Shown here one piece after another: positions 28,831 to 58,449 of a stretch of 64,000 nucleotides of DNA. Source of the DNA: Thermoprotei archaeon (GTDB lineage Archaea; Thermoproteota; Thermoprotei; Thermoproteales; B15-G16); assembly GCA_003649205.1 (NCBI GenBank), contig QMRC01000008.1, positions 20,245 to 84,244 on the forward strand, given 5' to 3'. Numbering within the stretch: position 1 is the stretch's first letter; every line of letters begins with the position of its first letter. A model generated the notes under the pieces. That model did no database searches. It was not told the origin of the DNA and worked only from the letters and a program-made list of their open reading frames with translations. The position numbers and the translations under genes were made by a program.

Positions 28831-29349
28831 GTGATGAGGGTGTGGGTCATAGCCTTTCTGAGGGTTGAGAACTTTCCAGTTAAGACACTGGTCTACAGTG
28901 TATCGCACCTCGTATCTGTGCTCTCTAGGTGTGGTGTTAGGTGTAGTAACTACGTGTCCTTCAACGACGATGAGATCTACCTTGCGAGAAATGTAGCTTA
29001 TAGAAACGGTATTTACTACGCTCAACGTGGCACTAAGTACGTGAAGTTTCCTGCAAAGTTCCTTAGAGATTACCTTGTTGATTTGCTGAACTTTGTAACT
29101 AAATTCGATAGGGTTAAGACAATTCCTGAAGCAATGTCTGATCAACTGTGTGGTCGTGGTGCTGTACCTATCTACGTTGATGTTGATTACATAACATCAA
29201 ATATGTACGATGTCAAGAATAGGAAAGTTGCTGGCTTTCTCCACTTTTCAATATCTCTACCCTTTCGTGGATGTAAGGATCTGGTAATGCTATTCTCTTG
29301 GAGGTTCCTAAAATATGGTAGAGAAGTACATAAGAATAAAAACAGATGA
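28831..29349 (+). CDS. Hypothetical protein
   Basis: Follows the promoter motif; overlaps the helicase start. Confidence 0.6.
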   Translation: MMRVWVIAFLRVENFPVKTLVYSVSHLVSVLSRCGVRCSNYVSFNDDEIYLARNVAYRNGIYYAQRGTKYVKFPAKFLRDYLVDLLNFVTKFDRVKTIPEAMSDQLCGRGAVPIYVDVDYITSNMYDVKNRKVAGFLHFSISLPFRGCKDLVMLFSWRFLKYGREVHKNKNR

Positions 29350-31222
29350 TATTCTCCTAAATGACTTGCTGGTACTCACTGCACCAAATGGCTTCGGGAA
29401 GACTTATGCTGTTGCTGGTGCTGTAGCTAAGTTATCCAGTATGAAGATCTTCGATAGAATATACTTCCTAGCTAATTCACAAGATGCTTGTGGATCTATT
29501 GTACAGAAGTTGAGACATCACAATGCTAAGTTAGTTATCTGGTATGAAGGTATTGAACGTAGCTGTATGAATAAGGAACTTCTTGAAGTGGTAGAGCATT
29601 TAACTGGAGACCCATCTCTTGCATGTCTAGTATGTCCATACAGTATACTGCAACAGAGTAAGAATAGAGAAATAACTCCAGAGACCTTGGTTCGAAGGGT
29701 GTTGAAGTTCTTTGAGGAGCGTGATGTAGCTGTTATTAGGGCTAGAGATGTGAAGATGTACTTACTACCAAATCAAGAAATCTGTGGTCACAGTGTAATT
29801 AGAGCACTTACACTAAGACCTTCTCTAGACTTTAAGATTTATCTAGAGCGACTGAATGTAACACCGATTTTTGTGGCACCTTTCCAGCTCTTTCTAACGT
29901 ACAGTACAGCACAAGTCTTCATGAAGAGTGCTGAGAGATTGAGAAAAGAGCGTAGGTACCTATTCGTATTTGATGAGGCTGATAACTTACTTCTAATGGG
30001 TAAGGTCTACACGATAGAGAAGCCAGATTTTACAGACTTTGACTACGAGATCTTGAATAAGCTATCTCCGTCTACCTATCGTCTTAGTGCTTTCATAGAT
30101 ATCTATACTAAGTTATTTAACATAATTGCGGAGGGTAGGAAGGAGCTTTCTAGGTACGATTCTAGGATTGGTGTTAGTGATATTAAGAGGCAAGTACATG
30201 AGTTACTTAGCTCAAGGACTGTTGAGCGTGTTGTTGCTGGTGTCTGTAAGCGTCTACGTACGATACTTCTTGAGGCTTTGAAGCAGATGAAGAGGACATT
30301 TCTCTTTAGGGCTGTTGAGTCTCTAAATCCCTTCACGCTAAGATTACTTAAGAGCTATGGTGTTCAAGAGTTTGTTAAGTACATTGACTGTGATGTTGTT
30401 CGTAGGAGAAAGGGTAGTCAGGTTGAGGAGGAGGTTACTGCTATTCGTCTTCAGAACTTCTCAATAGTTTCCGACATGGTGTTCAGCAATGAGAAACCTA
30501 TTCGTAAGAGTCAGAAGGTAGTTGTAACTGCTACGTGGTGTGATGACTTAATGCGTAGATTATTCAAGGTAGGTGCAGAGTGTGTGAGGGTTGTCCGTGC
30601 TGTACCTGATAACGTGTACTTTGGTAGATTTGTAATCTATGAAACTGGTAGTAGGGCTCTAGAATCTACAGTATATGGTAAGGGTCAGTTCACATATCGA
30701 GTACTTTACCTAATTAAGAAGGTAATAGATGTCTATGCTGAGAAGTTCGGTATGAAGCCTAGTGGTGTTCTCGTGTGGTTTATGTCTAAGAGGCAATTTA
30801 GAGCATTTCTATCAGTACTTCGAGAGAAGAGGGCTAAGATCTCGATTGAGAGCGATGATTTAGCGAGCATTACAGTTGCTAAGGTTAAGGTGTTACTCAC
30901 ATACCTTGGTTCTAGGATTACCAGAGGTGTTGACCTACCTGACTACGATATCTCCATAGTGTTAGCACCGTTTCTAAGACCTCCTAGATCCTTCGGTGCT
31001 AGATGGCTTGACTGCGACTATGCTAGAGCAATATTCGAGAGCATACAAGCAGTCATGAGAATTGTCAGATCACCATCACCTTCTAGACCAAAGGTTGTAA
31101 TGCTTGAGGATTCACTATTTAAGAGCCCATACAAGGACTATGCACCAGCATGGTTCGTAGACTTCATCAAGAGTGGAAGGAAGTTTATTGAGCTAGATCT
31201 CGTAACTGCTGTATCAATCTAG
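29315..31222 (+). CDS. SF2 helicase (XPD/DinG-like, Cys cluster)
   Basis: APNGFGKT, FDEADN, VTAT, RGVDLP, QAVMRIVR; Cys-rich insert after Walker A. Confidence 0.8.
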   Translation: MVEKYIRIKTDDILLNDLLVLTAPNGFGKTYAVAGAVAKLSSMKIFDRIYFLANSQDACGSIVQKLRHHNAKLVIWYEGIERSCMNKELLEVVEHLTGDPSLACLVCPYSILQQSKNREITPETLVRRVLKFFEERDVAVIRARDVKMYLLPNQEICGHSVIRALTLRPSLDFKIYLERLNVTPIFVAPFQLFLTYSTAQVFMKSAERLRKERRYLFVFDEADNLLLMGKVYTIEKPDFTDFDYEILNKLSPSTYRLSAFIDIYTKLFNIIAEGRKELSRYDSRIGVSDIKRQVHELLSSRTVERVVAGVCKRLRTILLEALKQMKRTFLFRAVESLNPFTLRLLKSYGVQEFVKYIDCDVVRRRKGSQVEEEVTAIRLQNFSIVSDMVFSNEKPIRKSQKVVVTATWCDDLMRRLFKVGAECVRVVRAVPDNVYFGRFVIYETGSRALESTVYGKGQFTYRVLYLIKKVIDVYAEKFGMKPSGVLVWFMSKRQFRAFLSVLREKRAKISIESDDLASITVAKVKVLLTYLGSRITRGVDLPDYDISIVLAPFLRPPRSFGARWLDCDYARAIFESIQAVMRIVRSPSPSRPKVVMLEDSLFKSPYKDYAPAWFVDFIKSGRKFIELDLVTAVSI

Positions 31223-31563
31223 ACGTACTTCATTACCTCTAGCTTTGCTGATGTACTACCTATCTTCGATCCAAGCATCATCAAACCTCCAGTAATGAAG
31301 CCGAAGCTACATACCTCCGCTATATATCTTACTTCGTACATTAGTCCTATTGCTAGTATGATCAACGTGAAGCCTGTTAGTACGTACCCTAGGACGAGAA
31401 TCTTCTTCATTTCCTCTCTAACTACTTTTCTCGCTCCTGTAAGTGCTGACACTATGATCCCTAGCCCGAGGCATGCTAGGAATGGTATAACTGTGTGGAG
31501 TAGTACTGCAAGACCTATACCAAGTACTAGAAATCCTATGAATATGTCTCTATCGAACTTCAC
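31219..31563 (-). CDS. Four-TM membrane protein
   Basis: Hydrophobic; tail EVMKYV. Confidence 0.7.
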   Translation of the reverse strand: MKFDRDIFIGFLVLGIGLAVLLHTVIPFLACLGLGIIVSALTGARKVVREEMKKILVLGYVLTGFTLIILAIGLMYEVRYIAEVCSFGFITGGLMMLGSKIGSTSAKLEVMKYV

Positions 31564-31607
31564 GTAATCACCGTACTTAGCTAGGTGAAGGAACTATTTC
31601 TGTATTT

Positions 31608-32060
31608 CTACGCTGTGAGCATCCTAGCAAATAACTGTGCCCTATCAAGATCGAGGACAATCTCCCTAGCTAGGACAATACATGTGTTATGTTCTAGATC
31701 TACAACACCCTCAATGTCCCTGACCTCTCTGACAACTGTTGAGCATGCTAGCTCTCTATCTGTTAGGTAGAAGATGAACTTTGCACCTATGTGTTTTCTC
31801 TCGATGAATCTCTGTAGATAGCTCTTTATCTTGGGAGGGCTTGTGAATGCTAGACTCCTTGTCTTAACCTTAACGGAGTTCGCTCTTACGAATCTATATT
31901 CCTTGAAGATGGGTACTTCGGTGAATACTGGTGTCTTAGGTATCTTCTTCTTGCAGTACGATGTAGTAAATAGCCTAACTAACCTAGGTTTCTCATTCTC
32001 GTGCAGGAGCACTGCGTAGTACCCTTGCCACTCAAATGTTCTTGGGAGTACGACTATCAT
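31608..32060 (-). CDS. Hypothetical protein
   Basis: RBS AGGAG; ORF. Confidence 0.6.
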   Translation of the reverse strand: MIVVLPRTFEWQGYYAVLLHENEKPRLVRLFTTSYCKKKIPKTPVFTEVPIFKEYRFVRANSVKVKTRSLAFTSPPKIKSYLQRFIERKHIGAKFIFYLTDRELACSTVVREVRDIEGVVDLEHNTCIVLAREIVLDLDRAQLFARMLTA

Positions 32061-32142
32061 TTCTATCTCCTACATTTGCTATCGTTCTTCTAAACTATAA
32101 ACTTCGCTAGATACTGTATATGGAGGTGCTTAGCAACCGATC

Positions 32143-32157
32143 TAAGTCCTAATAAAT
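32143..32157 (+). promoter_or_regulatory. Promoter motif TAAGTCCTAATAAAT
   Basis: Upstream of the RadA-like/Cas4-like operon. Confidence 0.6.
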
Positions 32158-32181
32158 ACTTCTGCAAGTAATCTACTTGAG

Positions 32182-33144
32182 GTGAGTGTGTTGAGTGCGA
32201 GGGGTATTCGTGAGAGGTTGAGGGAGAAGGCTAGGGAGATTGAGGCTGAGGAGATGGAGGAGGAGAGGAGACCAGAGCTAGATCTCTACACCTTAGTCAG
32301 CATGGTGGCACCACACGAGGCATTGATGCTGTTTGGGGGTACGAGGACAGGTAAGACTACGTTCTGTTACGTGGTCGTTAGGGAGGCAGTTGAGAAGTAT
32401 GGTCTAGATGCAGTGTACATAGATACTGAGGGTAATCTACACTGGAAGCTACCTCCAAAGGCACTGTACTACCGTGTATCAGGGCTAGATGACCTAAATG
32501 CAGTGATCAATGAGGTACATAGGAAGTTGATTAGGGAGGAGATTGGGCAGAATGGTCTCGTAGTAGTAGTTGACTCTCTTGAGGCGCCTGTACTGAGGTC
32601 AGCGGGCTCTAGTAGGAGCTTCTATTACAGAGCACAGGCATTTATGACACGTACAGTGCTTGGTGATAGGTTGATCGCTATTGCTAATGAGTACTCTAAG
32701 AAGTACGATAAGCCATTTACAATACTGATAACTGAGCACGCTAGATCTGAGATCGGTCTATCTAGGTTAATTGAGCAGGCAGTGAGCAGTGCTAGGGGTG
32801 AGGAAGGTGAGGGGAGGAGGAGTAGGTTCATTCGTCCTGAGGAGGTACCTCCTGAGATCAGGTTGCTGTACACGAGACCTAAGGGAGGTTCACTGCTGTA
32901 CCTAATAAAGGACATCTGGGTTACTGAGCAACTTGAGGCATATGCTGATGAGAGTGGTTACAAGAGGACGACATGTGGTGTCTATGCATGGGGTTCGAGA
33001 GCGTATGCTAGGATGGAGAGGGTTGCAACATTGAACATAGAGACTATACCTGAGCGAGGTAGGAGGAGAGTTAGGATTACCTACAAGATACATGCAACAC
33101 CAATACCCTTATTTGGTGTTGAGCCAGAGATAGCTCCTGAGTAA
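32182..33144 (+). CDS. RecA/RadA(B)-like recombinase ATPase
   Basis: Walker A GGTRTGKT, YIDTEG, Walker B VVVDSL. Confidence 0.85.
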   Translation: MSVLSARGIRERLREKAREIEAEEMEEERRPELDLYTLVSMVAPHEALMLFGGTRTGKTTFCYVVVREAVEKYGLDAVYIDTEGNLHWKLPPKALYYRVSGLDDLNAVINEVHRKLIREEIGQNGLVVVVDSLEAPVLRSAGSSRSFYYRAQAFMTRTVLGDRLIAIANEYSKKYDKPFTILITEHARSEIGLSRLIEQAVSSARGEEGEGRRSRFIRPEEVPPEIRLLYTRPKGGSLLYLIKDIWVTEQLEAYADESGYKRTTCGVYAWGSRAYARMERVATLNIETIPERGRRRVRITYKIHATPIPLFGVEPEIAPE

Positions 33145-33145
33145 C

Positions 33146-34018
33146 ATGCTCAGTAAGGAGCAACCAAGCCCAATACCCTACAGATTTTTCTTCCCCTTCA
33201 TCCAGTCCGTACTCTATGCAAGTAAGTTGACTCTATCTGAGCTACTTCTCCTATGTAGGAGAGAGCTTAAGATTCGTGAGGTTAGGGGAACAAACCTATA
33301 TGTTGTTAGGTCTAGACTACACAAGCTAGGTTTCATAAACGTCAGCGACATATCAAGCTACGTCTACTGTCCAAGACGGTTCTGGTACATGTACAGGTTG
33401 TTAGGTGATGAGGTTAAGGGAGTGATAATATGTGATAGGTATCAGCTACGTAGACTACTAGTCGGTACATATGCACACCTGTGCTTCAGAAACTTCGTGA
33501 ACTACCTAACCTCAAAGCTCCGTTCACTAGGTGCAGATCCACATCTCTACACAGAAGACGAGCTTTACGACTACGAGTACGGTCTAGCAGGGCACGTAGA
33601 TCTAGTCTACGTAGATCCACACGAGGACTACGCTGTCGTCTACGAGCTTAAGTCGAGCTACAGACGTAGAGTACACGATACCTACATTGCTCAAGTACTT
33701 AGCTACTGCTACCTAGTTGAGAAGGCTAAGGACGTAGTAGTTGATAGAGGTTACATAGTTAACTGCTCTGGAATGTGGAGAATACCCTATGCAGGAGATG
33801 AGAGGTCACTCATAAGAGACCTACTTAAGGAAGTACGTAGATGCATCATCAAGGATGAACCCCCTAGTGAGGAGGAATCTGCTAGAGTGGAGAACATAAA
33901 TAAGTGTAGAGTCTGCGGATTCAGATGCATCTGTCTTCAAGATCTCGAAACCGAGAAGAAGCTAAGGTCTAGACTTGTCGAGGAGTTTCCTGAAATACGT
34001 AGAGTGCTGAGAAGATAG
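33146..34018 (+). CDS. Cas4-like PD-(D/E)xK exonuclease (Fe-S)
   Basis: SYVYCPRRFW, GTYAH, GHVDLV, YELKS, QVLSY, C-terminal CRVCGFRCIC. Confidence 0.85.
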   Translation: MLSKEQPSPIPYRFFFPFIQSVLYASKLTLSELLLLCRRELKIREVRGTNLYVVRSRLHKLGFINVSDISSYVYCPRRFWYMYRLLGDEVKGVIICDRYQLRRLLVGTYAHLCFRNFVNYLTSKLRSLGADPHLYTEDELYDYEYGLAGHVDLVYVDPHEDYAVVYELKSSYRRRVHDTYIAQVLSYCYLVEKAKDVVVDRGYIVNCSGMWRIPYAGDERSLIRDLLKEVRRCIIKDEPPSEEESARVENINKCRVCGFRCICLQDLETEKKLRSRLVEEFPEIRRVLRR

Positions 34019-34189
34019 GTGATCTAGAAACTGCTTCTTAGTCACAAACAACCTACCACAGACTGGACACTTGAAGCAGTAACCATACCTAAACTCATAG
34101 ACCTTAATCGTCCTCTCAGCCAACTTCCTCCTACTAGTCACGAATATACGTAGTACAGTTCTAGATTTAAGGACATCTAGCACAAGCAC
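33962..34189 (-). CDS. C2H2 zinc-finger protein
   Basis: FKCPVCGRLFVTKKQFLDHLSSQH. Confidence 0.7.
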   Translation of the reverse strand: MLVLDVLKSRTVLRIFVTSRRKLAERTIKVYEFRYGYCFKCPVCGRLFVTKKQFLDHLSSQHSTYFRKLLDKSRP

Positions 34190-34275
34190 TCATGCAACTC
34201 AAGAGAGGTACAACTGTACTTCACTAGCAGAAATCTAAATATTTCACCTACAAATATATTTGTTGGTGATTTCGT

Positions 34276-34647
34276 ATGAGTGGTGTAGGTACTAATGGAA
34301 AGGTATTGGAGGTTGATGTAGAGGTAGTGACGTACTTCAGGGCGAAGTTCAGGAGGAGTAGTAAGGGGTTACAGCACTATAGGTGCTTTGTTGAGTACCT
34401 TGAGAATAGACTCTTCGGTGAGCGTGGTAGGGTAGTAACCTTGAGGGCTAGGCAGTTGACGGAGTATGCTAGTCAGAGATTGAGGACGAGTGACTCCAGA
34501 GCTGGTTTCTATGCGTACCACTTCATTAAGCTGATTGGTAAGCTGTTGAAGAGAGATGTTGAGTGCAATGGAAGAGGTACCTTTATTCAAGTGAGTAGAA
34601 GTGAACTTGAGGAGCTGGTACCAGTCTTGAGAAGTCTCGTGAGGTGA
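34276..34647 (+). CDS. Putative DNA-binding (winged-helix-like) protein co-transcribed with the RAMP gene
   Basis: Basic helical ORF; its stop overlaps the RAMP start (GTGA). Confidence 0.55.
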   Translation: MSGVGTNGKVLEVDVEVVTYFRAKFRRSSKGLQHYRCFVEYLENRLFGERGRVVTLRARQLTEYASQRLRTSDSRAGFYAYHFIKLIGKLLKRDVECNGRGTFIQVSRSELEELVPVLRSLVR

Positions 34648-35270
34648 AGTACATGAGTAGGAGTAGTGTAGGTACCACACCTAAACCACAAATTCCACAC
34701 TTGATACAAGGTCAGGAGGGTGAGCTAGCTCTCCTCGTTATCTGGATGAGGACTATTACGCCAGTCATAGCACCAGCAATGTGTAAGTCAGCTATACAGC
34801 TCTATGCTAGGATTAGGGGGCTAGAGAAGAAGTACGGTAGAGAACTCCTAGATCACGTAGATAGGTTGTTCAAGGGATTTAAGTGCCCAATTCACGGTAC
34901 AGTTGAGCCTTGTCTAGATGGTTCGACGCTGAAGTCCGTGATAAATAACTACCTGAGGTTATTCGGTAGAAAGTACATCACATACGGCATATTCTTCAGC
35001 GAGGACTCGTGCTCATGTGAAACTAGGATCATAACGACTATGAAGAAGGTTAAGAGAGGTAATAAGGAGGAGACTGTCTTAGTTAAGAACCCACTAACCT
35101 ACGAATTCATCGCACCTGAGCAAGAACTTCACGGAGTCTTAGCGACAAACGACAGAGAGGTAATCAATAAACTATCGACACTTGTCAACAAGGTAGTCAT
35201 CATTGGAGGAAGAGTATCGAGAGGCTTCGGTAGAGTCCTAGTTGAAAGAGTGGAAGCAGTACAAATATAA
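34644..35270 (+). CDS. Stand-alone RAMP-superfamily protein (Cas7/Csm3-like)
   Basis: Beta1 VIWMRTITPV (TP motif); PCLDGSTLKSVI (cf. P-x-IPGSSLKG); thumb ETRI..YEFIAP; C-terminal glycine loop IGGRVSRGFGRV. All in the canonical order. Confidence 0.8.
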   Translation: MKYMSRSSVGTTPKPQIPHLIQGQEGELALLVIWMRTITPVIAPAMCKSAIQLYARIRGLEKKYGRELLDHVDRLFKGFKCPIHGTVEPCLDGSTLKSVINNYLRLFGRKYITYGIFFSEDSCSCETRIITTMKKVKRGNKEETVLVKNPLTYEFIAPEQELHGVLATNDREVINKLSTLVNKVVIIGGRVSRGFGRVLVERVEAVQI

Positions 35271-35304
35271 AATCACACCTCTCTTTTCCTTTTTAAGAAT
35301 AGAA

Positions 35305-35721
35305 TGAGGGGTGCTTACCTCGATGAAGTATCTGGAGTTGGTGATAACTAGCTATTAGTACATGCTTTACGCTATGTAGTCCTTAACTACTCATTTACCA
35401 TTCTTCCTTGAATATTCATTCTATACAGTACCTTATGTAGCATAATTATATTAGAAGTTGTGTAGTGGGAATTACCTCAGTTGGAGGGGAGGTACTTGCT
35501 CCCTGATGATAAGTAGTATGCGGAGAATCCTTCGTATCAAGTAATGTATAGCGAATCCTTCATATTGGGTATGATGTCTTTGGTACACTGTATAGTGCTC
35601 ACACTTTCAAGTACCTTGCAAAATGAAGTACATTCACCATGCATACTAACATGTTGTAATTCATAAATTAGGCATTCCTAATTCATGCTAGGTTGTCATC
35701 CGTAACACATTGCTACTGTTT
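35305..35721 (+). ncRNA. Putative guide-RNA array 1: two units, each a GAGGGG..CC..GATGA handle followed by 17 or 30 heptamers NNTNNNN
   Basis: Unit 1 (35329-35447): 15 T + 2 C at heptamer position 3 of 17. Unit 2 (35512-35721): 26 T, 3 C, 1 A of 30. Register set by the GATGA of each handle. Starts about 35 nt after the RAMP stop. RNA status and strand are inferred. Confidence 0.8.
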
Positions 35722-35744
35722 ACCTAGTGTCCAGTGTATGTGAG

Positions 35745-36086
35745 CTATATTGTGTATGTTGGTTTCTCTAGTTCTGGTGTTGTGTTTGTGATTGGTTCAA
35801 TGACTGTATCTCCAAGTATTGCATTCACTATGTTTGACGCTATGACGCATAGGTGTGCAGTTGCTGTATTTAGGTACTTAGCGAGGTCTATCAACACATT
35901 TGGGTCACTATACCTTATCTCAATAGTTGATCCACGTAGGTTCACTACAGCTCTACCACTACACACCTTCGCAAATGTACTTAGTACCTCACGAATTATG
36001 TGCTGAATCTCAGGTTCAAGTCTGTGCATTTCGATAATTAACGAGTTCCTATCTACCTCAACTCTAAAACCAACCTTCCTCTTCAT
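35745..36086 (-). CDS. Hypothetical protein
   Basis: ORF between array 1 and nrdD. Confidence 0.6.
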   Translation of the reverse strand: MKRKVGFRVEVDRNSLIIEMHRLEPEIQHIIREVLSTFAKVCSGRAVVNLRGSTIEIRYSDPNVLIDLAKYLNTATAHLCVIASNIVNAILGDTVIEPITNTTPELEKPTYTI

Positions 36087-36147
36087 GGTACCCTGTGCAC
36101 AAAGTCGTGTTAACTAATTTATATTCTCTTACCTCTAGCTAACGTAC

Positions 36148-36162
36148 TAACCCCTAATAAAT
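36148..36162 (+). promoter_or_regulatory. Promoter motif TAACCCCTAATAAAT
   Basis: Upstream of nrdD; same core as the 28261 motif. Confidence 0.65.
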
Positions 36163-36176
36163 TCTTTAGGAAATAT

Positions 36177-38015
36177 ATGTTCGGTGATTCGATGAGCTTA
36201 GTAGAGCAGTACATTAAGGATCTTGACTGGGAAGTGCGGGAGAATGCTAACATGAGGAGAAGCTTCACACACCTAATAACGTACCTAGGTACCAAAGTTC
36301 TGAAGGACTACACACCAAAGGTCTTCGGTGAGAAAGCTTGGAAGTTACATTGTGATGGCTGGATTCACATACATAAGCTTCCGTTCAGCCTATTGATACC
36401 GTACTGCTTTGGCATAAACACTGCTAAGTTACTGCTTCTAGGTCTACCTACGGAGACAGTTGCCTCTAACCCTGCTAAGCACTTGATATCTGCTTGTGAC
36501 CACATAAAATCACTGACGGTTATCATAAGCCAAGAGTTTAGTGGTGCAACTGCTCTCTCAGCAATTGACCTATACCTAGCACCGTTACTCGCAGAAGACA
36601 TGAAGTTCATTGGAGATGGTAGAGTACTTGAGTGGTACGTAAAGCAAGCACTTGAGGAACTTACATGGGACATAAACTACCCGTATCGCTACGGTTATCA
36701 ATCACCATTCGTGAACCTATTCATCAACTACACGTCGAGCAAGAAGATACTGGATGAACCAGCAATTGTAGGAGGTAAAGTACTTGAGAACACTAGGCTA
36801 GGTGACTACCTCGACTACGCAGAGAAGCTAATCAAGGTTTACTGCAGGTTACTTCTACACGGTGATGCATGGGGTAGACCATTCACATTCCCAATACTGT
36901 CAATCTTCCCAACGAAGGAAATAATGGAGAGCCCCATATGGGAGGACATAGCTCTGTTAACAGCTAAGCGAGGAACATTCTATTTCCTAAATCCAAATGT
37001 CGTAAATCCAGATGACATGTTCTCAATGTGTTGTAGGCTGACTATTAACCACGCTAAGGTTGCTGTTAGGTGTAGGGGTATGTGGACTATACCTGATGAG
37101 ACGGGTAGCATTGGTGTAGTCACGATTAACATGGCTAGGATCGGTATGGAGGCTGTTAAGAGAGGTGATGAGAAGTACATCTATGACCTATTGCTTGAGC
37201 TATTGGGTGAGTGTAGGAAGATTCTAACCATCATGAGGAATAGGTACTATGTGACGATGAACGAGCTAGATATGATGCCTCTAGCTAAGAAGCTAGGTGT
37301 TAGGCTAGAGAACTTCTACAGCACTGTAGGTCTAGTAGCACTACCTGAGTTCGTTAGCGTTGTACTGCAGAGACCGAGGCTATGGTATATAGAGGATAGA
37401 GGTGTTGCTAAGGAAGTCGTGAAGATTTACAGAGACGTACTAACGTTTGTGAACAAGGTGCTTGATGAGTGGGAGAGAGAGGACAATGTGCTGTATAATG
37501 TCGAGCAGGTACCAGCAGAGTCTGCATCGTATAGGCTAGCTGTTCTAGACTATGAGAAGTATCCAGAGTTCAGGAGCTATATACCAGTTGAGGTACCTAT
37601 GTACGGTAGTGAGAAGGTACCCTTCTACAGCAGTCAGAATACACCAAGCTACAGTACGTGGGATCTGAGGCTACAGCTAGAGATTGAGTCTGAGGTACAA
37701 CCGCTCTTCACAGGAGGTGTCATGAAGCACATATTCTTAGGTAGAGAGCTAAGTGTAGATGAGGTCACGAAGTTCGTTAGGCACATCACTGAGAACACGA
37801 AGATAGTGTACTTCAGCTTAACACCAGTACAGACAACATGCAATGACTGTGGCTTCTGGACAACAGGCATGTATACTAGATGTCCAAAGTGTGGAAGTGC
37901 TAAGGTAGATATCTGGAGTAGAATAGTGGGATACTACAGACCAGTGAGAATGTGGAACATAGGTAGGAGAGCAGAATTCAGAACCAGACAACACTACATG
38001 AACATACCAATTTAA
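36177..38015 (+). CDS. nrdD: Anaerobic (class III) ribonucleoside-triphosphate reductase, no ATP cone
   Basis: RENAN, IHIHKL..PYC, FTFPI, SMCCRL, GSIGVVTIN, EQVPAES, CNDC..CPKC, glycyl-radical motif SRIVGYYRP. Confidence 0.95.
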   Translation: MFGDSMSLVEQYIKDLDWEVRENANMRRSFTHLITYLGTKVLKDYTPKVFGEKAWKLHCDGWIHIHKLPFSLLIPYCFGINTAKLLLLGLPTETVASNPAKHLISACDHIKSLTVIISQEFSGATALSAIDLYLAPLLAEDMKFIGDGRVLEWYVKQALEELTWDINYPYRYGYQSPFVNLFINYTSSKKILDEPAIVGGKVLENTRLGDYLDYAEKLIKVYCRLLLHGDAWGRPFTFPILSIFPTKEIMESPIWEDIALLTAKRGTFYFLNPNVVNPDDMFSMCCRLTINHAKVAVRCRGMWTIPDETGSIGVVTINMARIGMEAVKRGDEKYIYDLLLELLGECRKILTIMRNRYYVTMNELDMMPLAKKLGVRLENFYSTVGLVALPEFVSVVLQRPRLWYIEDRGVAKEVVKIYRDVLTFVNKVLDEWEREDNVLYNVEQVPAESASYRLAVLDYEKYPEFRSYIPVEVPMYGSEKVPFYSSQNTPSYSTWDLRLQLEIESEVQPLFTGGVMKHIFLGRELSVDEVTKFVRHITENTKIVYFSLTPVQTTCNDCGFWTTGMYTRCPKCGSAKVDIWSRIVGYYRPVRMWNIGRRAEFRTRQHYMNIPI

Positions 38016-38044
38016 CCACCCTCGACACCTATTCTTCAAACAAT

Positions 38045-38425
38045 CAGAGGGGTACATACCTGATGAAGGACAGAGAATTCCTCTTACGCTATCATCATTT
38101 GTTCAGTTTAGTTTCATAATACTCCGTATCAGTATCCTATGGGTTATAACTCATTATCAGTACCTTGTGCATAATACTCATTTAGTAGTTGAACACCTTT
38201 GAAAACTGCAGTAATCTCCAGCATTGTCTCCTAAGCAACCTGAGGGAGTGTATTCCTGATGAGGGATGTATTTTGCACCTTACACCTTGCGAAGTATAAA
38301 GTCCAGTATTTGAGGTATCAGGTACTCACTAGATATTTTATCCTACATTACTCATGCTATAGTGTCTGAAGTTTCCGATGAGGAATGTCCACTGATCTAT
38401 ACGTTGTGAACTCTAGTAGTTGATT
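38045..38425 (+). ncRNA. Putative guide-RNA array 2 (paralog of array 1): handles at 38045-38068 and 38240-38264, possibly a third at 38366-38383, each followed by NNTNNNN heptamers
   Basis: 38069-38200: 16 T of 19 units with one 6-nt slip. 38265-38425: 22 T + 1 C of 23. Handles and the 3' tail of the first unit resemble those of array 1. Confidence 0.8.
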
Positions 38426-38503
38426 TCGTTCTGTGTAGTACAGCTGTTTGTCTGCTCTCGGTGTGAGTCCTTATAGTTTCGGTAACTTGTATTGCTGTTA
38501 GCT

Positions 38504-38809
38504 ATGAGGTGTAGTGGTGAGAGTGCGTATGAGTTGGCTAGGAGGTTGCTGTTGAGATCTCTCCTAGTGTTGAAGCAAGGTACGAGGAGTTCAGGGTTCT
38601 GGATAACACCGCATAAGGTAGCGAAGATCAATAAGGTGAGTGGTAGAGCAATCGGTAGATTCATACACATGTTACTGAGTGAACTTGAGAAGGAAGGACT
38701 AGTTCAAGGAATGAACACTGGTAGTAGAAGGTACTCAAAGAAGTACTACGTCAAGCTAGATAACGTAGATAAGTGCATTGAGTACTTGAGAAGAACTAAG
38801 TACCTCTAA
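38504..38809 (+). CDS. Winged-helix DNA-binding protein
   Basis: ITPHKVAK..GRAIGRFIHMLLSELEKEGLV; ATG at 38504 preferred over the track start 38492. Confidence 0.65.
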   Translation: MRCSGESAYELARRLLLRSLLVLKQGTRSSGFWITPHKVAKINKVSGRAIGRFIHMLLSELEKEGLVQGMNTGSRRYSKKYYVKLDNVDKCIEYLRRTKYL

Positions 38810-38879
38810 TCCTCTTTTTCCTTGCTACCTACCTTACTTTACAATACTTATTTAGTTGTTTCTGTGTTGTTTAGTATTG

Positions 38880-39485
38880 ATGTCGGTCTGCATAATTCTC
38901 GACACATCTACTCTCACTTACATGCATGAGAGTTGGTTACACGGTGTTAGGTCTGCGGTACACCATGCTAGGGAGTCTGTAACTCATCCGAGAACTCAAG
39001 AGGCTCTTGCTAGGAGGAGGGTTGCTGAGTACTTGAGTAGGGTTCTCGGTGACTACTGTCTCTACGGTGCTACTTGCTACGTGACGAAGTCTATCAAGGA
39101 TGAGGTTGAGGCACTTGCTGGTGAGTACAGAGATCTCTACGAGGCAATTAAGGACTTCCTAGATAAGGCTAGGGTAGGTGAGGTGAGTGCTGTTGCTACT
39201 AGAGAATTCGAGTTCGTTAAGTCTGTTGCAGAGAGGAGAGGGTACAGAGTTGTTGAGTCTCCTGAACTTGAGTGGAGGTTGAAGAGGAGAGGTATACGTG
39301 CTCTAACGTACGGTGATATCGAGGCTATTGCAACAGCACTATCACGTGGTTGTACACTCGTAACTGGTGACAAGGATGTGTACCAGCTAGCTAGGGAAGT
39401 AGGTGCTAAGGTACTGTACCTATACGAGGACTACGTACAGGAACCAATCAAGAGAGTAGCTAAGAGAGTACTACCTCGGAGGTAG
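38880..39485 (+). CDS. PIN-domain (VapC-like) ribonuclease
   Basis: IILDTS, KDEV, GDIEAIATA, LVTGDK; no adjacent antitoxin obvious. Confidence 0.8.
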   Translation: MSVCIILDTSTLTYMHESWLHGVRSAVHHARESVTHPRTQEALARRRVAEYLSRVLGDYCLYGATCYVTKSIKDEVEALAGEYRDLYEAIKDFLDKARVGEVSAVATREFEFVKSVAERRGYRVVESPELEWRLKRRGIRALTYGDIEAIATALSRGCTLVTGDKDVYQLAREVGAKVLYLYEDYVQEPIKRVAKRVLPRR

Positions 39486-39494
39486 CACCTAGAA

Positions 39495-40859
39495 ATGAGT
39501 GAAGCAAAGCAAGTCTCTAAGATACTTAGTGAGGAACAGCTAGCAGAACTGAGGTCTCTAGTTGAGAAGCTATTTGAGATTGAGGCTAGAGGTAGAGACA
39601 TAGCATCTAGATCAGACGTACTCGATACAGTGAAGGAAGCGGAGGAGTACTTCGATAGAGCTAATACAGATCTAACAGATCTCTTCTACCTACTATCACT
39701 CATTAGAGCTAGGTTACCTCCTGATATCAGTGAGAAGATTAAGCTAACTATAGTGCTATCTGAGATTGCTAGAAATAGTGAGGAAGCACTAGAGGATCTT
39801 GAGAGAGCTAAAGAAACAATCGCTACTACACTGGCTGAAATTCATAGAGCTAGCTGGAATAAATTTGTTGAGGGGAAGCACGAAGCATCTAAGGTACTTG
39901 ACGAGCTGTACAATAGGCTTAGGGAGATTGCAGATAAGTACATACTGAAGCACAGAGCTAGGGAAGTCACTGAAGAGAGTATTAGGAAGGGTATTGAGGA
40001 GTTGAGTAAGTTATTTAGTGAGTACTGTGAATCAAAGGAGTTCGAGAAATTAGTTGGTTCATCCACTGCTATGAGCATATGTGGTAACTTGTCAATAGCT
40101 CAGCTAGGGTTGTCGTACTCTGTTGAGAGCTTCGATATGGTGAGTAAAGGTCTCGATGTACTGGATGACCTCTGTAAGGAGGTATTCGGTAGTAGATGTA
40201 CGTGGTTGCGAGGTGTGAAGACTCCATACACATTGTCGGCTCTAGTCAATGACTTCTCAGCTAGTGTACACAGATTAGCAGAGTCTCTTCGTGAGGACTT
40301 AATGAAGTTAGGTGAAGTTCGTGGAATGTGGGTAGGTAGAATCTTCGTGATGGAGAACACAGACGAGAGATTAATCGAGTTCGCTAAGGTGTTGTCTAAG
40401 GCTTGGGAGTACGGTGATAAGTCACTGATCTACGCTCCTGAAGATGCTGAAGCTCTTGGAGGTATATGCTACGACAATAAGTGTGAACTCCGTGTTGGCT
40501 CTGCTGAGGGGCATAGAACACATGTAACTCTTCGAGATTCCGAGGTTAAGGTAGAGTACTACGATACTGATGACGATGTGAATCAGGTGATGAAGAAGCT
40601 ACTTGAGGAATTTGGTGCGTGTAGTTGCAGTATAGAGTTTGAAACTGGTGTATTCTGTACATGCCCAGCAGATAGGTTGAGAGATGTAGCACCTGTACTA
40701 TCGCTAGCAACATCGATGGACTACAGAATCTTCGATAAAGCGAAGTGGGGAACATACCTCAACCTTGTGGAGGAGTGTAGAGAGAAGGTGAGGAACGATA
40801 TCGAGTGGGAAGTCTGCATCTCAGAGAAGTACATTGAGGAGCTTAGGAAACACATCTAG
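39495..40859 (+). CDS. Hypothetical protein (helical N-terminus; C-terminal domain shared with 50771-51793)
   Basis: Paralogous segments such as THVTLRDSEVKVEYY / STIRVKDNEVEIEYL. Confidence 0.7.
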   Translation: MSEAKQVSKILSEEQLAELRSLVEKLFEIEARGRDIASRSDVLDTVKEAEEYFDRANTDLTDLFYLLSLIRARLPPDISEKIKLTIVLSEIARNSEEALEDLERAKETIATTLAEIHRASWNKFVEGKHEASKVLDELYNRLREIADKYILKHRAREVTEESIRKGIEELSKLFSEYCESKEFEKLVGSSTAMSICGNLSIAQLGLSYSVESFDMVSKGLDVLDDLCKEVFGSRCTWLRGVKTPYTLSALVNDFSASVHRLAESLREDLMKLGEVRGMWVGRIFVMENTDERLIEFAKVLSKAWEYGDKSLIYAPEDAEALGGICYDNKCELRVGSAEGHRTHVTLRDSEVKVEYYDTDDDVNQVMKKLLEEFGACSCSIEFETGVFCTCPADRLRDVAPVLSLATSMDYRIFDKAKWGTYLNLVEECREKVRNDIEWEVCISEKYIEELRKHI

Positions 40860-41680
40860 CTAATTACCTTGTTTATGTTGTCTATTATCCTATGTATGCT
40901 CTTCGGTGCCTTTGGGAACTTCATGTAGAATCCCTCACGTTCTAAGTACTCTCGAAGCAACTTAGCTATCTGTTTCTTCGGGACATTGACTTCTAGGTAT
41001 GGCTTCACAAATTTCTTCAACCACTCTCTAGCCTTCTCGATATCCTCCTTGGTTAACTGCTTAAAGTCTAGCTTACCACTTAGGTGTAGTGCTAGGTAGT
41101 CGATTAGTGATGGTCTGTGATAGAGCTTACCCTCGCCCCTCAATCTGTCGAGAGCTAGCTTCGTTCTGTACACAACCTCCTCCCTATATGCCTCAGCCTG
41201 AGCACCAGCTAGGCTAAATGCTATTTCTCCTACAACATCTAGGAGTGAGCAGAATATGTCTACTAGTGCCTTGGTCAGTGACTTAGCTACGGGATTGTCT
41301 TCAGGTATCTTAATCTGTTCAAGTAGCTTAGACTTCAGCTCTGCTATGCTGGGTATGGGATTGTTCACAAACACTACATCAAAGCCTTCACGAAGAAGCC
41401 ACTTGTAGACTTCCTTCAAGTGCTCATACCTTCTAGAAAGTCTAGCTACATCGAGCATCACTATCTTCCTTATCTTGTTCATTCTACAGAACTCAATCAT
41501 TTGCTTGAAGACAGGTCTCTCGAGAGGATTCTCAGCACCAGTTATGGTCTCAGTGAAGAAGAGTGGCATGAATCCTCTCTCCCTACACCACTTCTCCAGA
41601 ACAATTCTCTGATTTTCTGGATTTTCATCTGGTTGAGATATCCTTATGTAGCACGCTACGATTTCACTCATGTAGCTCAC
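40856..41680 (-). CDS. Serine recombinase (resolvase/invertase family)
   Basis: YIRIS catalytic motif, ENQ, ITGA..RPVF, DVARLSR, E-x-V-xx-RTK. Confidence 0.9.
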   Translation of the reverse strand: MSYMSEIVACYIRISQPDENPENQRIVLEKWCRERGFMPLFFTETITGAENPLERPVFKQMIEFCRMNKIRKIVMLDVARLSRRYEHLKEVYKWLLREGFDVVFVNNPIPSIAELKSKLLEQIKIPEDNPVAKSLTKALVDIFCSLLDVVGEIAFSLAGAQAEAYREEVVYRTKLALDRLRGEGKLYHRPSLIDYLALHLSGKLDFKQLTKEDIEKAREWLKKFVKPYLEVNVPKKQIAKLLREYLEREGFYMKFPKAPKSIHRIIDNINKVIS

Positions 41681-46338: not shown

Positions 46339-47922
46339 GTGAGGTGTTGGTGTGTGGGTGTTGTGAAGTGTGAGGTTTCTGACAAGTGGACTGTAGAGTC
46401 TGGTGATTACTACCTAGGTAATAAGTATCATCCTGTTGCTGTAGTTGTCCCTGCTAAGGACGATGTTGGTAGGAGGCTTATTAAGACTGCTATTGACGAG
46501 GGTGTTGCAATAGCTGGTTTCTGTCAGACAGCTAACATTGGTATTGAGAAGGTAGTTATCAATGTGCTGGCTAATCCAAACATTAGGTACGTAGTCATTG
46601 CAGGTCACGAGTCTAAGGGTCATAGAAGTGGTGAAGCACTGTACTGTCTATGGAAATACGGTGTAGATCTTGTGACTAAGAGAATACTGAGGTGTGGTGC
46701 ACCAACAAGCTACCTACCAAATCTACCGATTGAGGTAATTGAGAGGTTTAGGAAGCAGGTAACTGTCATACCGCTGTTCACAGACGATAAGGGGTACGTA
46801 CCTAGCTCAGTCACTAGGATCAGAGTAGGGTCTAGGGAATTCAAGGTACCTATCCACGCTGGTATGAGTAAGCAATTTGGCTTTACTGTTGTTGATGTGT
46901 GTACTAGTGAGGAGTTGCTGAGGTTCATCATACACTGCTGTATTCAGGAACTTGAGAACAAGGTAACTGTAGGTATTAGCAATAGGTACCTAGATGTCTT
47001 CGAGGTCTACGAACTCTACGATAAAGGAGCATTCGATACTAAACCACTCATATACAAGGTAGTACATGAGGAGTACGTACCTGAGGTAAGGGTTGTAGCT
47101 AATTCACCAATTGGTGTATTTGTCGAGGCACCTGACCTAAAGCACGGCTACAGAGCCGTCATGCACTTAATCGATGAGTTGGGTATTGAGGTACCTACGA
47201 GACATGGCTTAACTAAGGAGCTTCAGTACGTAACCATAGTCTACCGTAGCATACCTAGGTTCGACTTCAGTGAGGAGAATGGTAGAGTTAAGGTAACGTA
47301 CATGGATGAGAGCCACATACCAGACGACTATCCACTGAAGAGCCCTCACGACATTAGGCGGTACTGTGAGGCTTTGCTCAATGGTGAGGCACAGATCGAG
47401 TTTCACTATACCTACGGTGAGAGGATGAGGCACTTCTTCAACTACGAGATCACGAGGTTTAGACCTAAGCTAGGAGATGAGCTGTGGAGTGAGCTAACTA
47501 AGAAAATCCTCATTCAGAGTATGTTCATTAGAGAGCCCCCTCACGAGGTCTTACAGAGAGCAGTTGTGAGGTTATGTGAGGTAGATCAGCTTAGAGCAGT
47601 CATAGAGAACATCGCTAAGGCACCGAACGAGAGATTCCACGTGATTGCGTACTGGAATCCAGTGACTGACCACAGAGCTGATGTGCATCACCCATGCTTC
47701 GTAATGACGCAGTTCATGATTAGGAACAGTAGGTTGGTGACGTGTCACTACATTAGGTCACACGACTTCGAGAATGCACACATACACAATACATACGGAG
47801 TATCAGCAATAGCTAACTACGTAGTGTGGAAGCTCAAGAGATTAAACCCACAGCAATTCAGTAACCTAGACGTAGGTGAGTTAGTGTACGTAGTAGGTAG
47901 CTGTCATAAATACGTGAGGTGA
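46339..47922 (+). CDS. thyA: Fusion: MtrA-like corrinoid-binding domain + archaeal-type thymidylate synthase
   Basis: N-terminal GDYYLGN, AIAGFCQTANIGIEKVVINVLANPNIRY, GHESKGHRSG, YLPNLP..IERFRKQV (MtrA). C-terminal YTYGERM, HPC, RSHDF..HN (ThyA). Confidence 0.85.
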   Translation: MRCWCVGVVKCEVSDKWTVESGDYYLGNKYHPVAVVVPAKDDVGRRLIKTAIDEGVAIAGFCQTANIGIEKVVINVLANPNIRYVVIAGHESKGHRSGEALYCLWKYGVDLVTKRILRCGAPTSYLPNLPIEVIERFRKQVTVIPLFTDDKGYVPSSVTRIRVGSREFKVPIHAGMSKQFGFTVVDVCTSEELLRFIIHCCIQELENKVTVGISNRYLDVFEVYELYDKGAFDTKPLIYKVVHEEYVPEVRVVANSPIGVFVEAPDLKHGYRAVMHLIDELGIEVPTRHGLTKELQYVTIVYRSIPRFDFSEENGRVKVTYMDESHIPDDYPLKSPHDIRRYCEALLNGEAQIEFHYTYGERMRHFFNYEITRFRPKLGDELWSELTKKILIQSMFIREPPHEVLQRAVVRLCEVDQLRAVIENIAKAPNERFHVIAYWNPVTDHRADVHHPCFVMTQFMIRNSRLVTCHYIRSHDFENAHIHNTYGVSAIANYVVWKLKRLNPQQFSNLDVGELVYVVGSCHKYVR

Positions 47923-55142: not shown

Positions 55143-55622
55143 TTCCTACTTGATTCTACTGTCTTGAGGGTTGCACTATAAGATGTATTCTTAAGTTTAA
55201 GTTCTTCGGGAAGAGATCTAGTTAATTTATTGTTAATAATGTTTTATTTCTAGTTGCTTCTCCTCATTCTACTGCGAGAGGTTTTATGGGAGAACTTTTA
55301 TATTTCGCAACTTCATTAATATTATTGGGATTGTGTAGAACAACTGCTCTTCTAAATAATTCTACTTCTGCTAGTAATTGAACCTACTTCATAGATCTAC
55401 TCCTACTTGTGCACCCCCAGACCCACAGGGTCTGGGGGGAAGAACCTGACCCAAATGGGGATGATGGGAAACCCCCTCCCCTTCTTTCAAGGTTAAGGGG
55501 GAGGGGGTATAGGTCGGGAAATCTCCTTTCCTCTCTTTCTTTTTCTCTACTGCCCCTGAGGGGATGCTCGGGAGATGATGAATAGATCCTGAGCACCGAT
55601 GAGTTGGGGCAAATCTCTACTT
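55143..55622 (+). repeat. Cluster of about nine YCTACT motifs
   Basis: CTACT near 55146, 55156, 55269, 55362, 55384, 55397, 55403, 55547, 55617. Confidence 0.6.
55414..55611 (+). ncRNA. GC-rich structured RNA (three stem-loops, C/D-box/K-turn-like motifs)
   Basis: CCCCCAGACCC/GGGTCTGGGGG 11-bp stem; ACCCCCTCCCCTT/AAGGGGGAGGGGGT stem; TGCCCC/GGGGCA enclosing CTGAGGGG..ATGATGA..CTGA..CCGATGA. Confidence 0.6.
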
Positions 55623-57581: not shown

Positions 57582-57585
57582 CCAA

Positions 57586-58044: not shown

Positions 58045-58068
58045 ATCTACCTTCTCTTCCTTTCTACT

Positions 58069-58425
58069 ATGTCTTGGTATAGGTATTGCTTTACTGTAAG
58101 AGACAATCAGTGCTTCAAAGGAACTCAAGGAGATGTAGTGATTACAGGACTTGGAAAGAAATTAGTGCTTAAGTGTGATTTCAGTAAATTCAAGGAATTA
58201 ATTGCTAATGTAGGGAGTTTCAAGGTCTTTCTAAGGGAGAATGACTTCTACGAGAATGACAGGGTTATCATTGCTTTTAGTTGTGTAATTAGTTTTGTTA
58301 GAGAGCAAGTGATTGAGGAGAACAATACAAGGATTCACAGCACAAGACTTGTCAGAGCTGAGCTAATGGATAGAAGGCTCAAAGTTGATGAAGTCGAGGT
58401 ATTCAGAGAAGTTCTGAGAAGATAA
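58069..58425 (+). CDS. Hypothetical protein
   Basis: Preceded by pyrimidine tract + CTACT-ATG. Confidence 0.7.
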   Translation: MSWYRYCFTVRDNQCFKGTQGDVVITGLGKKLVLKCDFSKFKELIANVGSFKVFLRENDFYENDRVIIAFSCVISFVREQVIEENNTRIHSTRLVRAELMDRRLKVDEVEVFREVLRR

Positions 58426-58449
58426 TGAAACTCAAACCTTTCTTCTACT

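Follow-up and report, generated by a model that had tools for sequence, protein, structure and literature searches.

Two paralogous non-coding arrays with a seven-base T rhythm beside a stand-alone Cas7-like gene on a mobile element of a Thermoprotei archaeon

The window analysed in this study is a stretch of 64,000 nucleotides (nt) from a Thermoprotei archaeon assembly (GCA_003649205.1; contig QMRC01000008.1, positions 20,245 to 84,244 of the forward strand). It makes up the last 64 kb of an 84-kb contig, here called C8, in an assembly of 2.07 Mb and 31 contigs. Contig C8 is a mobile element, probably a virus, whose otherwise tight gene packing is interrupted by two gaps of ~475 nt each, at 35271–35744 (gap 1) and 38016–38491 (gap 2), which flank the gene nrdD. 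Gap 1 is bordered by a stand-alone Cas7/Csm3-like gene of the RAMP family on the + strand and by a convergent open reading frame (ORF) of 113 amino acids (aa) on the − strand, and gap 2 by nrdD (+) and an ORF of ~100 aa (+). According to the ORF list, the sole ORF of at least 40 aa inside either gap is a 40-aa frame at 35544–35666 in gap 1. The gaps accommodate five repeat units, two in gap 1 (array 1) and three in gap 2 (array 2), all on the + strand and in the same direction as the flanking genes. Every unit starts with a hairpin- or loop-bearing "handle", and the bodies that follow carry a T at every seventh base. This combination of handles, seven-base T tracks and a lone Cas7-like gene fits no described RNA or DNA element; the feature is real and unexplained, and it is probably new. 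A first-pass annotation, made from the letters alone, had called array 2 a paralog of array 1 with conserved scaffolding and a different payload. Its observation is confirmed and its interpretation is supported in part. The handles, tails and boxes that it named were found where it had placed them, and they are given below with the other features of the locus.

34276–34647, + strand: 123-aa gene (P0003), whose stop overlaps the RAMP start by 4 nt
34644–35270, + strand: stand-alone Cas7/Csm3-like RAMP gene of 208 aa, directly upstream of array 1
35290–35302, + strand: TATA-like T/A-rich stretch TTTTTAAGAATAG, 4–16 nt upstream of handle 1; a putative promoter element by visual comparison
35304–35328, + strand: handle 1, composed of GA, hairpin GGGG..CCTC and GATGAAG (motif GAGGGGTGCTTACCTCGATGAAG at 35306–35328)
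35329–35440, + strand: unit 1 body, T at coordinate mod 7 = 2, with long stretches lacking T at phases 0 and 1
35427–35434, + strand: unit 1 AGTACCTT box, 105 nt past GATGA, its T in the local T phase
35441–35460, + strand: tail 1, CATAAT..TTAGAAGTTG, promoter-like, resembling CCTAATAAAT..TTTAGG upstream of genes of the element
35482–35513, + strand: handle 2, composed of GA, hairpin GGGAG..CTCCC and TGATGATAAG; the hairpin is present in the minimum-free-energy fold
35511–35700, + strand: unit 2 body, T at mod 7 = 3 in 26 of 31 heptads, handle included
38045–38068, + strand: handle 3, the first of array 2, composed of GA, hairpin GG..CC and TGATGAAG (motif GAGGGGTACATACCTGATGAAG at 38047–38068)
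38069–38195, + strand: unit 3 body, T phase 5, then 4 past a 1-nt slip near 38100–38110
38240–38265, + strand: handle 4, composed of CTGA, hairpin GGGA..TTCC and TGATGAGGG; its GATGA lies 196 nt (28 × 7) past that of handle 3
38263–38365, + strand: unit 4 body, T at mod 7 = 5, with an unbroken stretch of 14 in-phase T
38366–38383, + strand: minimal handle 5, composed of CTGA, 7 nt and GATGAGG, in register, 119 nt (17 × 7) past the handle 4 GATGA

The T spectrum of both gaps exhibited the harmonics of a period of 7, with peaks at 3.5 and 2.33 nt. These peaks stood 17- and 13-fold above the mean power in gap 1 and 8.5- and 6-fold above it in gap 2, and only period 3 was detected in nrdD between the gaps. 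When windows of eight heptads were slid along the sequence, one register held T in 7–8 of the eight positions over long stretches and adjacent registers held none. The in-phase T was counted in 15 of 19 heptads of unit 1, handle heptads included, and in 22 of 25 heptads over 38224–38410 in unit 4. Pooling of the unit bodies, with local registers picked after inspection, gave T at heptad position 4 in 70 of 81 heptads and a purine at position 3 in 61. This amounts to 0.88 bits at position 4 and 0.31 bits at position 3, with no more than 0.08 bits at each other position. An unbiased test was made by taking the best in-phase T count over any 25 heptads and comparing it with 2000 shuffles per gap; the counts were 22 for gap 1 and 24 for gap 2, the shuffle maximum was 20, and none of the 2000 shuffles reached the observed value. 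The assembly was also scanned for period 7 in all four bases (589,320 windows of 140 nt), where the gaps scored 22.4 and 18.1 against a 99.99th percentile of 16.5. Five of the other high scorers listed, on contigs C3, C2, C23 and C7 and at C8:29863, were inspected by eye and resemble 21-nt repeats or coding sequence; the two gaps are the only ORF-free regions with this period recognised in the assembly. The periodic base on the + strand is T only, and the landmarks GATGA and AGTACCT each have their T in the local T phase. Such a strict nucleotide rhythm is almost always the footprint of a repeating protein lattice. Since one U and the purine preceding it are specified at a fixed step and the rest is free, the binder would be a homo-oligomer with one base-specific pocket per subunit.

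The five handles, which start at 35304, 35482, 38045, 38240 and 38366, follow a common plan of GA, a G/C-rich hairpin or loop of 7–18 nt, (Y)GATGA and a purine-rich triplet. GA is located immediately 5′ of the hairpin and GAUGA 0–1 nt 3′ of it in all five, and the handles are 71–77% alike over 21–22 nt with varying stem and loop lengths. A motif scan of the kind proposed in the first-pass annotation gave 11 matches of GAGGG-N6-22-GATGA in the window against 1.8 expected, a number reached by none of 100 shuffles; four of the 11 lie within the two gaps. The loose handle pattern is common, with 177 matches in the assembly, and a single copy is hence uninformative. The signal is that 950 nt of ORF-free DNA contain five handles, every one of them on the same strand.

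The AGTACCTT boxes of units 1, 2 and 3, at 35427, 35610 and 38159, are the three exact AGTACCTTRYR matches in the 64 kb. They begin 105, 105 and 97 nt past the GATGA of their units, corresponding to 15, 15 and ~14 heptads with a 1-nt slip in unit 3, which agrees with the earlier reading of AGTACCT as the 15th, 15th and 14th heptamer. The distances from one GATGA to the next within an array are 183, 196 and 119 nt, the last of which (38258 to 38377) places the minimal handle in register, as had also been proposed. Four of the six landmark distances (105, 105, 119 and 196 nt) are exact multiples of 7, and the other two are attributable to 1-nt slips near 35440–35480 and near 38100–38110. A modular length of about 100 nt, suggested in the first-pass annotation, is borne out as a handle-to-box distance and fails as a unit length, for which the handle-to-handle values apply. 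The tails resemble the motif CCTAATAAAT..TTTAGG, which precedes the start codons of nrdD and of several further genes by 11–35 nt. The shared tail thus looks, by its sequence, like the promoter motif of the element rather than an RNA 3′ module, and it may drive the next unit. A tail-like TAGTAGTTG also follows handle 5 at 38414–38422. Upstream of handle 1, the TTTTTAAGAATAG stretch could alternatively be the terminator of the RAMP operon.

Global alignment of unit 1 with unit 3 gave z = 6.0 (200 shuffles), which bears out the paralogy of the two arrays; z was 1.7–3.6 for the remaining unit pairs. Units 1 and 3 share the handle, a TTACGCTAT word, the AGTACCTT box and the tail CATAAT..TTAG(A/T)AGTTG, the similar tails that had been noticed in both first units (35441–35460 and 38170–38191). 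The sequence between these landmarks does not align among the units, as the first-pass annotation had stated, and the conserved scaffolding that it described consists of islands only (handle, box and tail), with the heptad ruler kept. Its wording of "guide" and "payload" was not sustained, as the unit bodies gave no significant match anywhere in the assembly. Both arrays contain an internal duplication of 28 nt, or four heptads, located at 35511–35537 and 35539–35565 in unit 2 (74% identity) and at 38121–38148 and 38149–38176 in unit 3 (71%), which shows that growth in register occurs. Folding of the whole gaps and of the four bodies on both strands was the same as that of shuffled sequences (z from −1.75 to +1.16). 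A pairing of the handle loop with the AGTACCTT box, amounting to 9 bp in unit 2, was considered and rejected, because 100, 20, 115 and 176 of 200 shuffled bodies were equally good.

The 208-aa protein encoded upstream of array 1 matched the Pfam family RAMPs (PF03787) with an E-value of 1.3e-5 and 26.2 bits (cut-off 22.1), and PADLOC returned Csx10/Csm3 matches. Its AlphaFold2 model had a mean confidence score (pLDDT) of 90.3. With this model, the best Foldseek matches in the PDB were Csm3, Cmr4 and type VII Cas7 (E ~1e-5, probability 1.00, TM score 0.38–0.47), and a profile search of PDB sequences returned type III Cas7 paralogs. A glycine-rich loop, GGRVSRGFG, is located near the C-terminus, and its G194 is invariant in 17 of 17 aligned relatives; H71, D73 and E154 of the protein are also invariant. 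The predicted RAMP fold together with this C-terminal loop identifies the protein as a Cas7/Csm3-Cmr4-type RAMP. The family is rare; 24 proteins were found at E ≤ 1e-3 among 1.84 billion representatives, and a word-indexed search returned only the RAMP itself. Handle 1 starts 33 nt past the RAMP stop codon. Protein family scans covered 35 different window proteins, of ~80 ORFs of at least 100 aa, and no Cas10, Cas5, Cas11 or Cas6 was found among them. The 123-aa protein encoded immediately upstream matched no family in Pfam, NCBIfam, PHROGs or PADLOC; it is possibly winged-helix-like, as its structure-atlas matches include weak helix-turn-helix and CDT1_C-like leads.

A profile search with the RAMP in 120 genomes of the class and an overlapping sample of 401 genomes of the phylum gave strong matches in two genomes only, namely the source genome and one other, G030, which has three copies. 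On G030 contig C24, four same-strand copies of GA-CCC-N4-6-GGG-GATGA, at spacings of 98, 96 and 90 nt, begin 5 nt past the stop of the RAMP homolog. Contig C1 of G030 is a distant colinear relative of C8 by tblastx. On it, three hairpins with the loop GATANATGA and covarying stems (CCC/GGG, GACC/GGTC and GCCC/GGGC) follow the RAMP gene within 27 nt; the background of the loop word is 81 per 4.13 Mb. A further copy, on C120, is a fragment on a short contig, which makes a fourth RAMP copy in all. The G030 homologs are likewise solitary in the loci inspected. A RAMP gene followed by a handle-type array was hence observed in three of three intact RAMP loci, and this is the strongest argument that the protein and the array belong together. 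The pattern GACCC-N3-7-GGGGATGA was found in 25 of the 120 class genomes, and a reversed-pattern control matched at a similar rate by an unsummed reading of the tables, which indicates that single GACCC-type copies are meaningless and only clusters count.

Natural variants of the locus were obtained from vent, sediment or seawater metagenomes of different studies. The stretch is nearly unchanged in runs X2 and X3, and diverged variants are present in X4 and X5. In gap 1, the X4 variant differs at 36 or more sites in 35342–35712, with no indel among the differences listed (~10% divergence over 359 nt), and has five indels in 35730–35744. Positions 35521 and 35619 of unit 2, which lack T at the phase position in the window, become T in this variant, and phase T is lost at 35570 in unit 2 and at 35443 at the end of unit 1. 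Contig pieces over array 2 have at least 12 and at least 26 differences, with no gaps among the differences listed. The direction of this variation fits a constraint on register and T, with counts too small for significance. A Joint Genome Institute (JGI) metagenome contig, L004, carries at 2468–5311 the closest nrdD relative (83% identity over residues 175–612; 947 against 612 aa). It has ~1.15 kb (~380 codons) of extra DNA between the parts matching window positions 36702 and 36861, which looks by its sequence like an intein. Runs X4 and X5 carry the L004-type form of nrdD at high depth. L004 was the sole nrdD relative in the JGI metagenomes and has no array on either side.

Several searches for known families and relatives were negative. 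Rfam gave nothing at the gathering score in the whole window and nothing in 35200–38900 at E ≤ 10. No relatives of the RAMP, the 454-aa neighbour, three RAMP relatives or the handle pattern were found in IMG/VR, no match for the RAMP or for 35271–38491 was found in the GenBank phage/virus set, and gap 1 has no homolog in the 120 genomes of the class. Targets of the bodies as guides were searched in the assembly as contiguous matches, of which none was significant (best E 0.19), and with the periodic T masked, where the best match was 24/30 against 23/30 in a control register. A host look-alike, the GAGGG..CCTGATGA pair on contig C7, lies inside a 286-aa ORF and was rejected as a chance match. 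In the accessible portions of the literature on viral or stand-alone Cas7-like proteins and on 7-nt periodicity, nothing describes the feature; the periodicity items there concern telomeres and Rho. Coding sequence was also rejected, since the period is 7 and the frames opened by the ATG of GATGA are tiny and unrelated.

The arrays share several features with CRISPR loci. A Cas7-fold RAMP gene stands directly upstream of a same-strand, repeat-like array of hairpins and tags, a fixed nucleotide ruler recalls Cas7 filaments, and both are carried on mobile elements. The identification as a CRISPR array was nevertheless rejected. The direct repeats, expected to be near-identical over ~23–50 nt, are the 71–77% alike handles described above. 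The units are spaced 119–196 nt apart, unlike the ~60–75 nt of CRISPR arrays and the 55–75-nt periods of the host's own arrays. An adjacent cas operon is lacking, with only the RAMP and a Cas4-like nuclease among the 14 neighbouring ORFs scanned (28831–41680). Cas10, Cas5, Cas11, Cas6, Cas1 and Cas2 are absent among the proteins scanned, and no partner gene was found there for the RAMP as a subunit of a multi-protein CRISPR RNA (crRNA) effector from the same locus. Cas7 proteins polymerise on RNA at a fixed step of 6 nt, and their lattices are not known to be base-specific, unlike the 7-nt ruler with a specified U observed here. Phage RNA anti-CRISPRs are solitary repeat units that copy the host repeat. 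The arrays resemble them and viral mini-arrays as non-coding, repeat-like elements on a virus targeted by the host CRISPR system, but the two host repeats (cores of 25 and 17 nt, each ending in ATTGAAAG) do not resemble the handles, and a repeat mimic was hence rejected.

Periodic protein-binding tracks on RNA offer another comparison. HutP reads UAG every 7 nt and TRAP reads GAG/UAG every 5–6 nt, while Hfq binds (A-R-N)n and the assembly origin of tobacco mosaic virus (TMV) carries G every 3 nt. As in the present bodies, one or two bases are specified at a fixed step and the rest is free, and the HutP step is also 7 nt; these tracks, however, have 3–11 repeats, compared with 15 to ~30 per unit here. 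No HutP, TRAP or Sm-like gene was recognised among the neighbours scanned. The handles also resemble part of the archaeal box C/D small RNAs (sRNAs). According to the available part of PMC6009581, the consensus is an RNA of ~50 nt with a 5′ C box (RUGAUGA), a 3′ D box (CUGA) and ~12-nt guides, in which the D′ (CUGA) and C′ (UGAUGA) boxes form a kink-loop (K-loop) bound by L7Ae. The handles show the same box order as this D′/C′ K-loop (xUGA, 7–18 nt, (Y)GAUGA), which is characterised by tandem G·A pairs, and CUGA is perfect in the two handles at 38240 and 38366. They differ in that the handle loop is itself a hairpin and the 3-nt bulge is absent. Box C/D sRNAs were rejected, as the units are 119–196 nt long with no Rfam C/D match, and no RNA of ~50 nt with terminal C and D boxes and 10–12-nt guides is present. 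Because the feature departs in its defining properties from every family named, it appears new in kind.

In the reading that we prefer, at a probability of roughly 0.4, the gaps represent paralogous arrays whose units are non-coding RNAs encoded by the virus and read from the + strand; we infer their transcription, RNA rather than DNA as the active form, the binding protein and the purpose. The 5′ handle (GA, short G/C hairpin, GAUGA) would serve as a protein recognition or nucleation site, for which the stand-alone RAMP is the best candidate and the host K-turn (kink-turn) binder L7Ae the second. The unstructured body of 15 to ~30 heptads, with purine-U at a fixed place in each, would be the track of a protein polymer in which each subunit covers 7 nt and one U is read per step, and the AGTACCTT box with the promoter-like tail would mark where one unit ends and the next begins. 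Three features favour RNA over duplex DNA, namely that the rhythm is confined to one strand, that it runs in the same direction as the handles and genes, and that each repeat carries very little information. As a reader of the track, the Cas7-like protein is a candidate by its adjacency and by analogy with the polymerising habit of Cas7. As for the purpose, our guess is a decoy or scaffold ribonucleoprotein that would interfere with the CRISPR or RNA machinery of the host, rather than a guide.

Several observations weigh against this reading. Period 7 was detected in neither G030 handle array, so the rhythm does not hold for RAMP-associated arrays in general, and its reader may be something other than the RAMP. 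No RAMP gene adjoins array 2, and the known Cas7 filaments all step by 6 nt, not 7. Folding neither above nor below that of shuffles leaves selection for single-stranded bodies without support, and the lack of the 3-nt bulge of a canonical K-turn makes L7Ae binding a lead only. The substitutions at phase positions are too few to be decisive, with gains at p ~0.06 (an estimate) and losses no lower than at other T. Finally, a T on one strand every 7 bp could be read equally well on duplex DNA.

This last point leads to a DNA-level element, in which phased T and inverted-repeat handles would be duplex sites for a protein that coats or wraps DNA cooperatively; it could act in partition like a centromere, silence or regulate the embedded promoters as an array, or serve in assembly or packaging. 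We regard it as unlikely, if well short of far-fetched. The register continues through the promoter-like tails and unit borders, as in the 28 × 7 nt between handles 3 and 4, which is easier to understand as one lattice, and the handle hairpins lie between TATA-like stretches and GATGA, where, in our reading, archaeal operators are found. The 123-aa protein and the gene after array 2 both give weak winged-helix leads, and plasmid centromeres of short direct repeats exist, including 7-bp ones. However, only ~1.2 bits per heptad (purine-T) are conserved, which is very little for sequence-specific recognition of a duplex, and the strict strand asymmetry and co-orientation with handles and genes also argue against it. 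No ParA/ParB-type gene was found among the 35 proteins scanned, in an element most of whose small ORFs belong to no family, and the GC-skew minimum and gene-orientation switch lie near 28 kb of the window, away from both gaps, for which reason an origin or skew-switch site was also rejected. In a decoy, viral RNAs, alone or together with the Cas7-like protein, would imitate crRNA-like or K-turn RNAs and titrate Cas subunits or L7Ae of the host, much as phage RNA anti-CRISPRs act through solitary repeats. This would be a possible purpose within the preferred RNA-track reading rather than a separate anatomy. It would suit an element under CRISPR attack, with 3 of 185 host spacers matching C8, and a lone Cas7-like protein found without Cas10, Cas5 or Cas11 partners, and the xUGA-loop-GAUGA order is that of the L7Ae-bound K-loop in the available part of PMC6009581. 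But the handles are unlike the host repeats, and mimicry of a 6-nt Cas7 lattice does not account for the rhythm, so that we consider a decoy distinctly improbable.

Arrays without function would be the remains of tandemly duplicated 7-nt or 28-nt blocks that were copied a single time to another site and are drifting. The internal duplications agree with this, since duplication in register would spread the T phase without selection, and the phase-position substitutions are not significant. Neutral decay, on the other hand, would erode the seven positions alike, whereas position 4 keeps 0.88 bits and five positions keep no more than 0.08; with the information almost wholly at positions 3 and 4, the simple neutral divergence that the first-pass annotation had set against its own proposal is not what was found. 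The phase is maintained over units that no longer align, 359 nt remain free of indels at ~10% divergence, and ~475 nt of junk would have to be tolerated twice in an otherwise tightly packed element. We therefore think a lack of function very unlikely. CRISPR-like guide arrays, with handles as repeat-like processing sites and bodies as reprogrammable guides used by the RAMP, would explain the recurrence of a RAMP gene followed by a repeat-like array in all three intact loci and the paralogous units whose bodies differ on a kept scaffold. Bodies of 100–190 nt with a fixed U rhythm are unexpected for a free guide, however; the "repeats" are of unequal length and only 71–77% alike, no target was found in the assembly, and no adaptation gene was found among the proteins scanned beyond the Cas4-like nuclease, which belongs to a replication/repair cluster. 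Such guides are accordingly a very remote prospect. The GATGA of every handle contains an ATG, and short leaderless ORFs or leader peptides behind a Shine-Dalgarno-like GAGGGG or a TATA box would thus be conceivable; in unit 1, the TATA-like stretch is centred ~29 nt upstream of the ATG, as in other leaderless genes of the element. These micro-peptides can hardly be the answer, given that the frames have 11, 12, 18, 34 and 5 codons and agree only in M-K/R, the period is 7 rather than 3, and units 2 to 5 lack a convincing TATA at the right distance.

A bolder form of the RNA-track reading, which we regard as quite improbable, is that a virus-borne Cas7-like family forms filaments on dedicated non-coding RNAs encoded just behind its gene, here with a 7-nt step and one uridine per subunit. 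If true, this ribonucleoprotein would derive from CRISPR and have a new lattice, and it would serve the virus rather than the host, either as a decoy that diverts Cas proteins or L7Ae or as an RNA-guided tool of the virus itself. If the RAMP is the reader, viruses would have taken over Cas7 proteins with RNA partners of their own and a different step size, which would be relevant both to the evolution of class 1 effectors and to the ways in which viruses of hyperthermophiles counter host defence. With a DNA-binding protein as reader, the arrays would represent a novel type of centromere or silencer.

As for C8 itself, the three matching host spacers, from the three CRISPR arrays of the assembly, have 93–98% identity to the contig. 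Its recognised gene products include a family B polymerase, a DinG/XPD-like helicase, a RecA/RadB-like ATPase and the Cas4-like nuclease. NrdD, a thymidylate-synthase fusion, a subtilase, an RNA ligase and a DHH phosphoesterase are also encoded, together with many ORFs without a family; most small ORFs of the element are of this kind. The small genes flanking the two gaps are not paralogs of each other, and no tRNA or tmRNA was found in a scan of the window. The thymidylate-synthase fusion (46339–47922) is a 527-aa protein in which an MtrA-like domain (E 2.6e-35) is joined to a thymidylate-synthase-like domain (E 4.7e-12), and it is kept in the distant relative G030:C1 (tblastx E 2e-27). At 58720–60611, a DHH/DHHA1 phosphoesterase-like gene (317 aa) adjoins an RNA-ligase-like gene (299 aa), and this pair could be relevant to RNA end chemistry or cyclic-oligonucleotide signalling. 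An open frame of more than 1835 aa on the − strand (1–5505) runs past the window start; a carboxypeptidase-regulatory-like domain is the only one recognised in it, and the product is probably a giant protein with a surface or structural role in the element. At least six + strand genes at 55599–63609 have a common pyrimidine-rich word (CTCTTTTCC..CTACT, then ATG) before the start codon, where genes at ~28–47 kb have CCTAATAAAT 25–35 nt upstream instead. This suggests two promoter or leader classes in the element, perhaps early and late.

Other contigs of the bin gave further observations. Host CRISPR spacers also match C17, C20, C26 and C27 (88–100% identity over 41–52 nt), which indicates that the bin contains several further mobile elements. 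A single copy of a host CRISPR repeat (ending ATTGAAAG) is located at C26:60–95, at the start of this 4.4-kb contig, with a TATA-like TTTAAATA ~10 nt upstream; it is either an array end or a solitary repeat on a mobile element, that is, a candidate RNA anti-CRISPR. Contig C3 (291,428 nt) is identical to its own reverse complement, and this perfect palindrome is almost certainly an assembly artefact that doubles ~146 kb. A structured element of ~150 nt with three hairpins and covarying stems occurs both in the window (55388–55560) and on C26 (130–300). Hairpin 1 is CCCCCAGACCC/GGGTCTGGGGG in the window and CTCGGGAGCC/GGCTCCCGAG on C26, and is followed by CTGA-CCC-NAAT-GGG-GATGA, hairpin 3 and a T-rich stretch, so that a G030-type handle at window position 55448 belongs to this recurring element. 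Rfam gave only sub-threshold matches for it (H/ACA Pab91, E 0.23; Moco, E 0.06), and it is probably an undescribed structured RNA common to mobile elements of this host.

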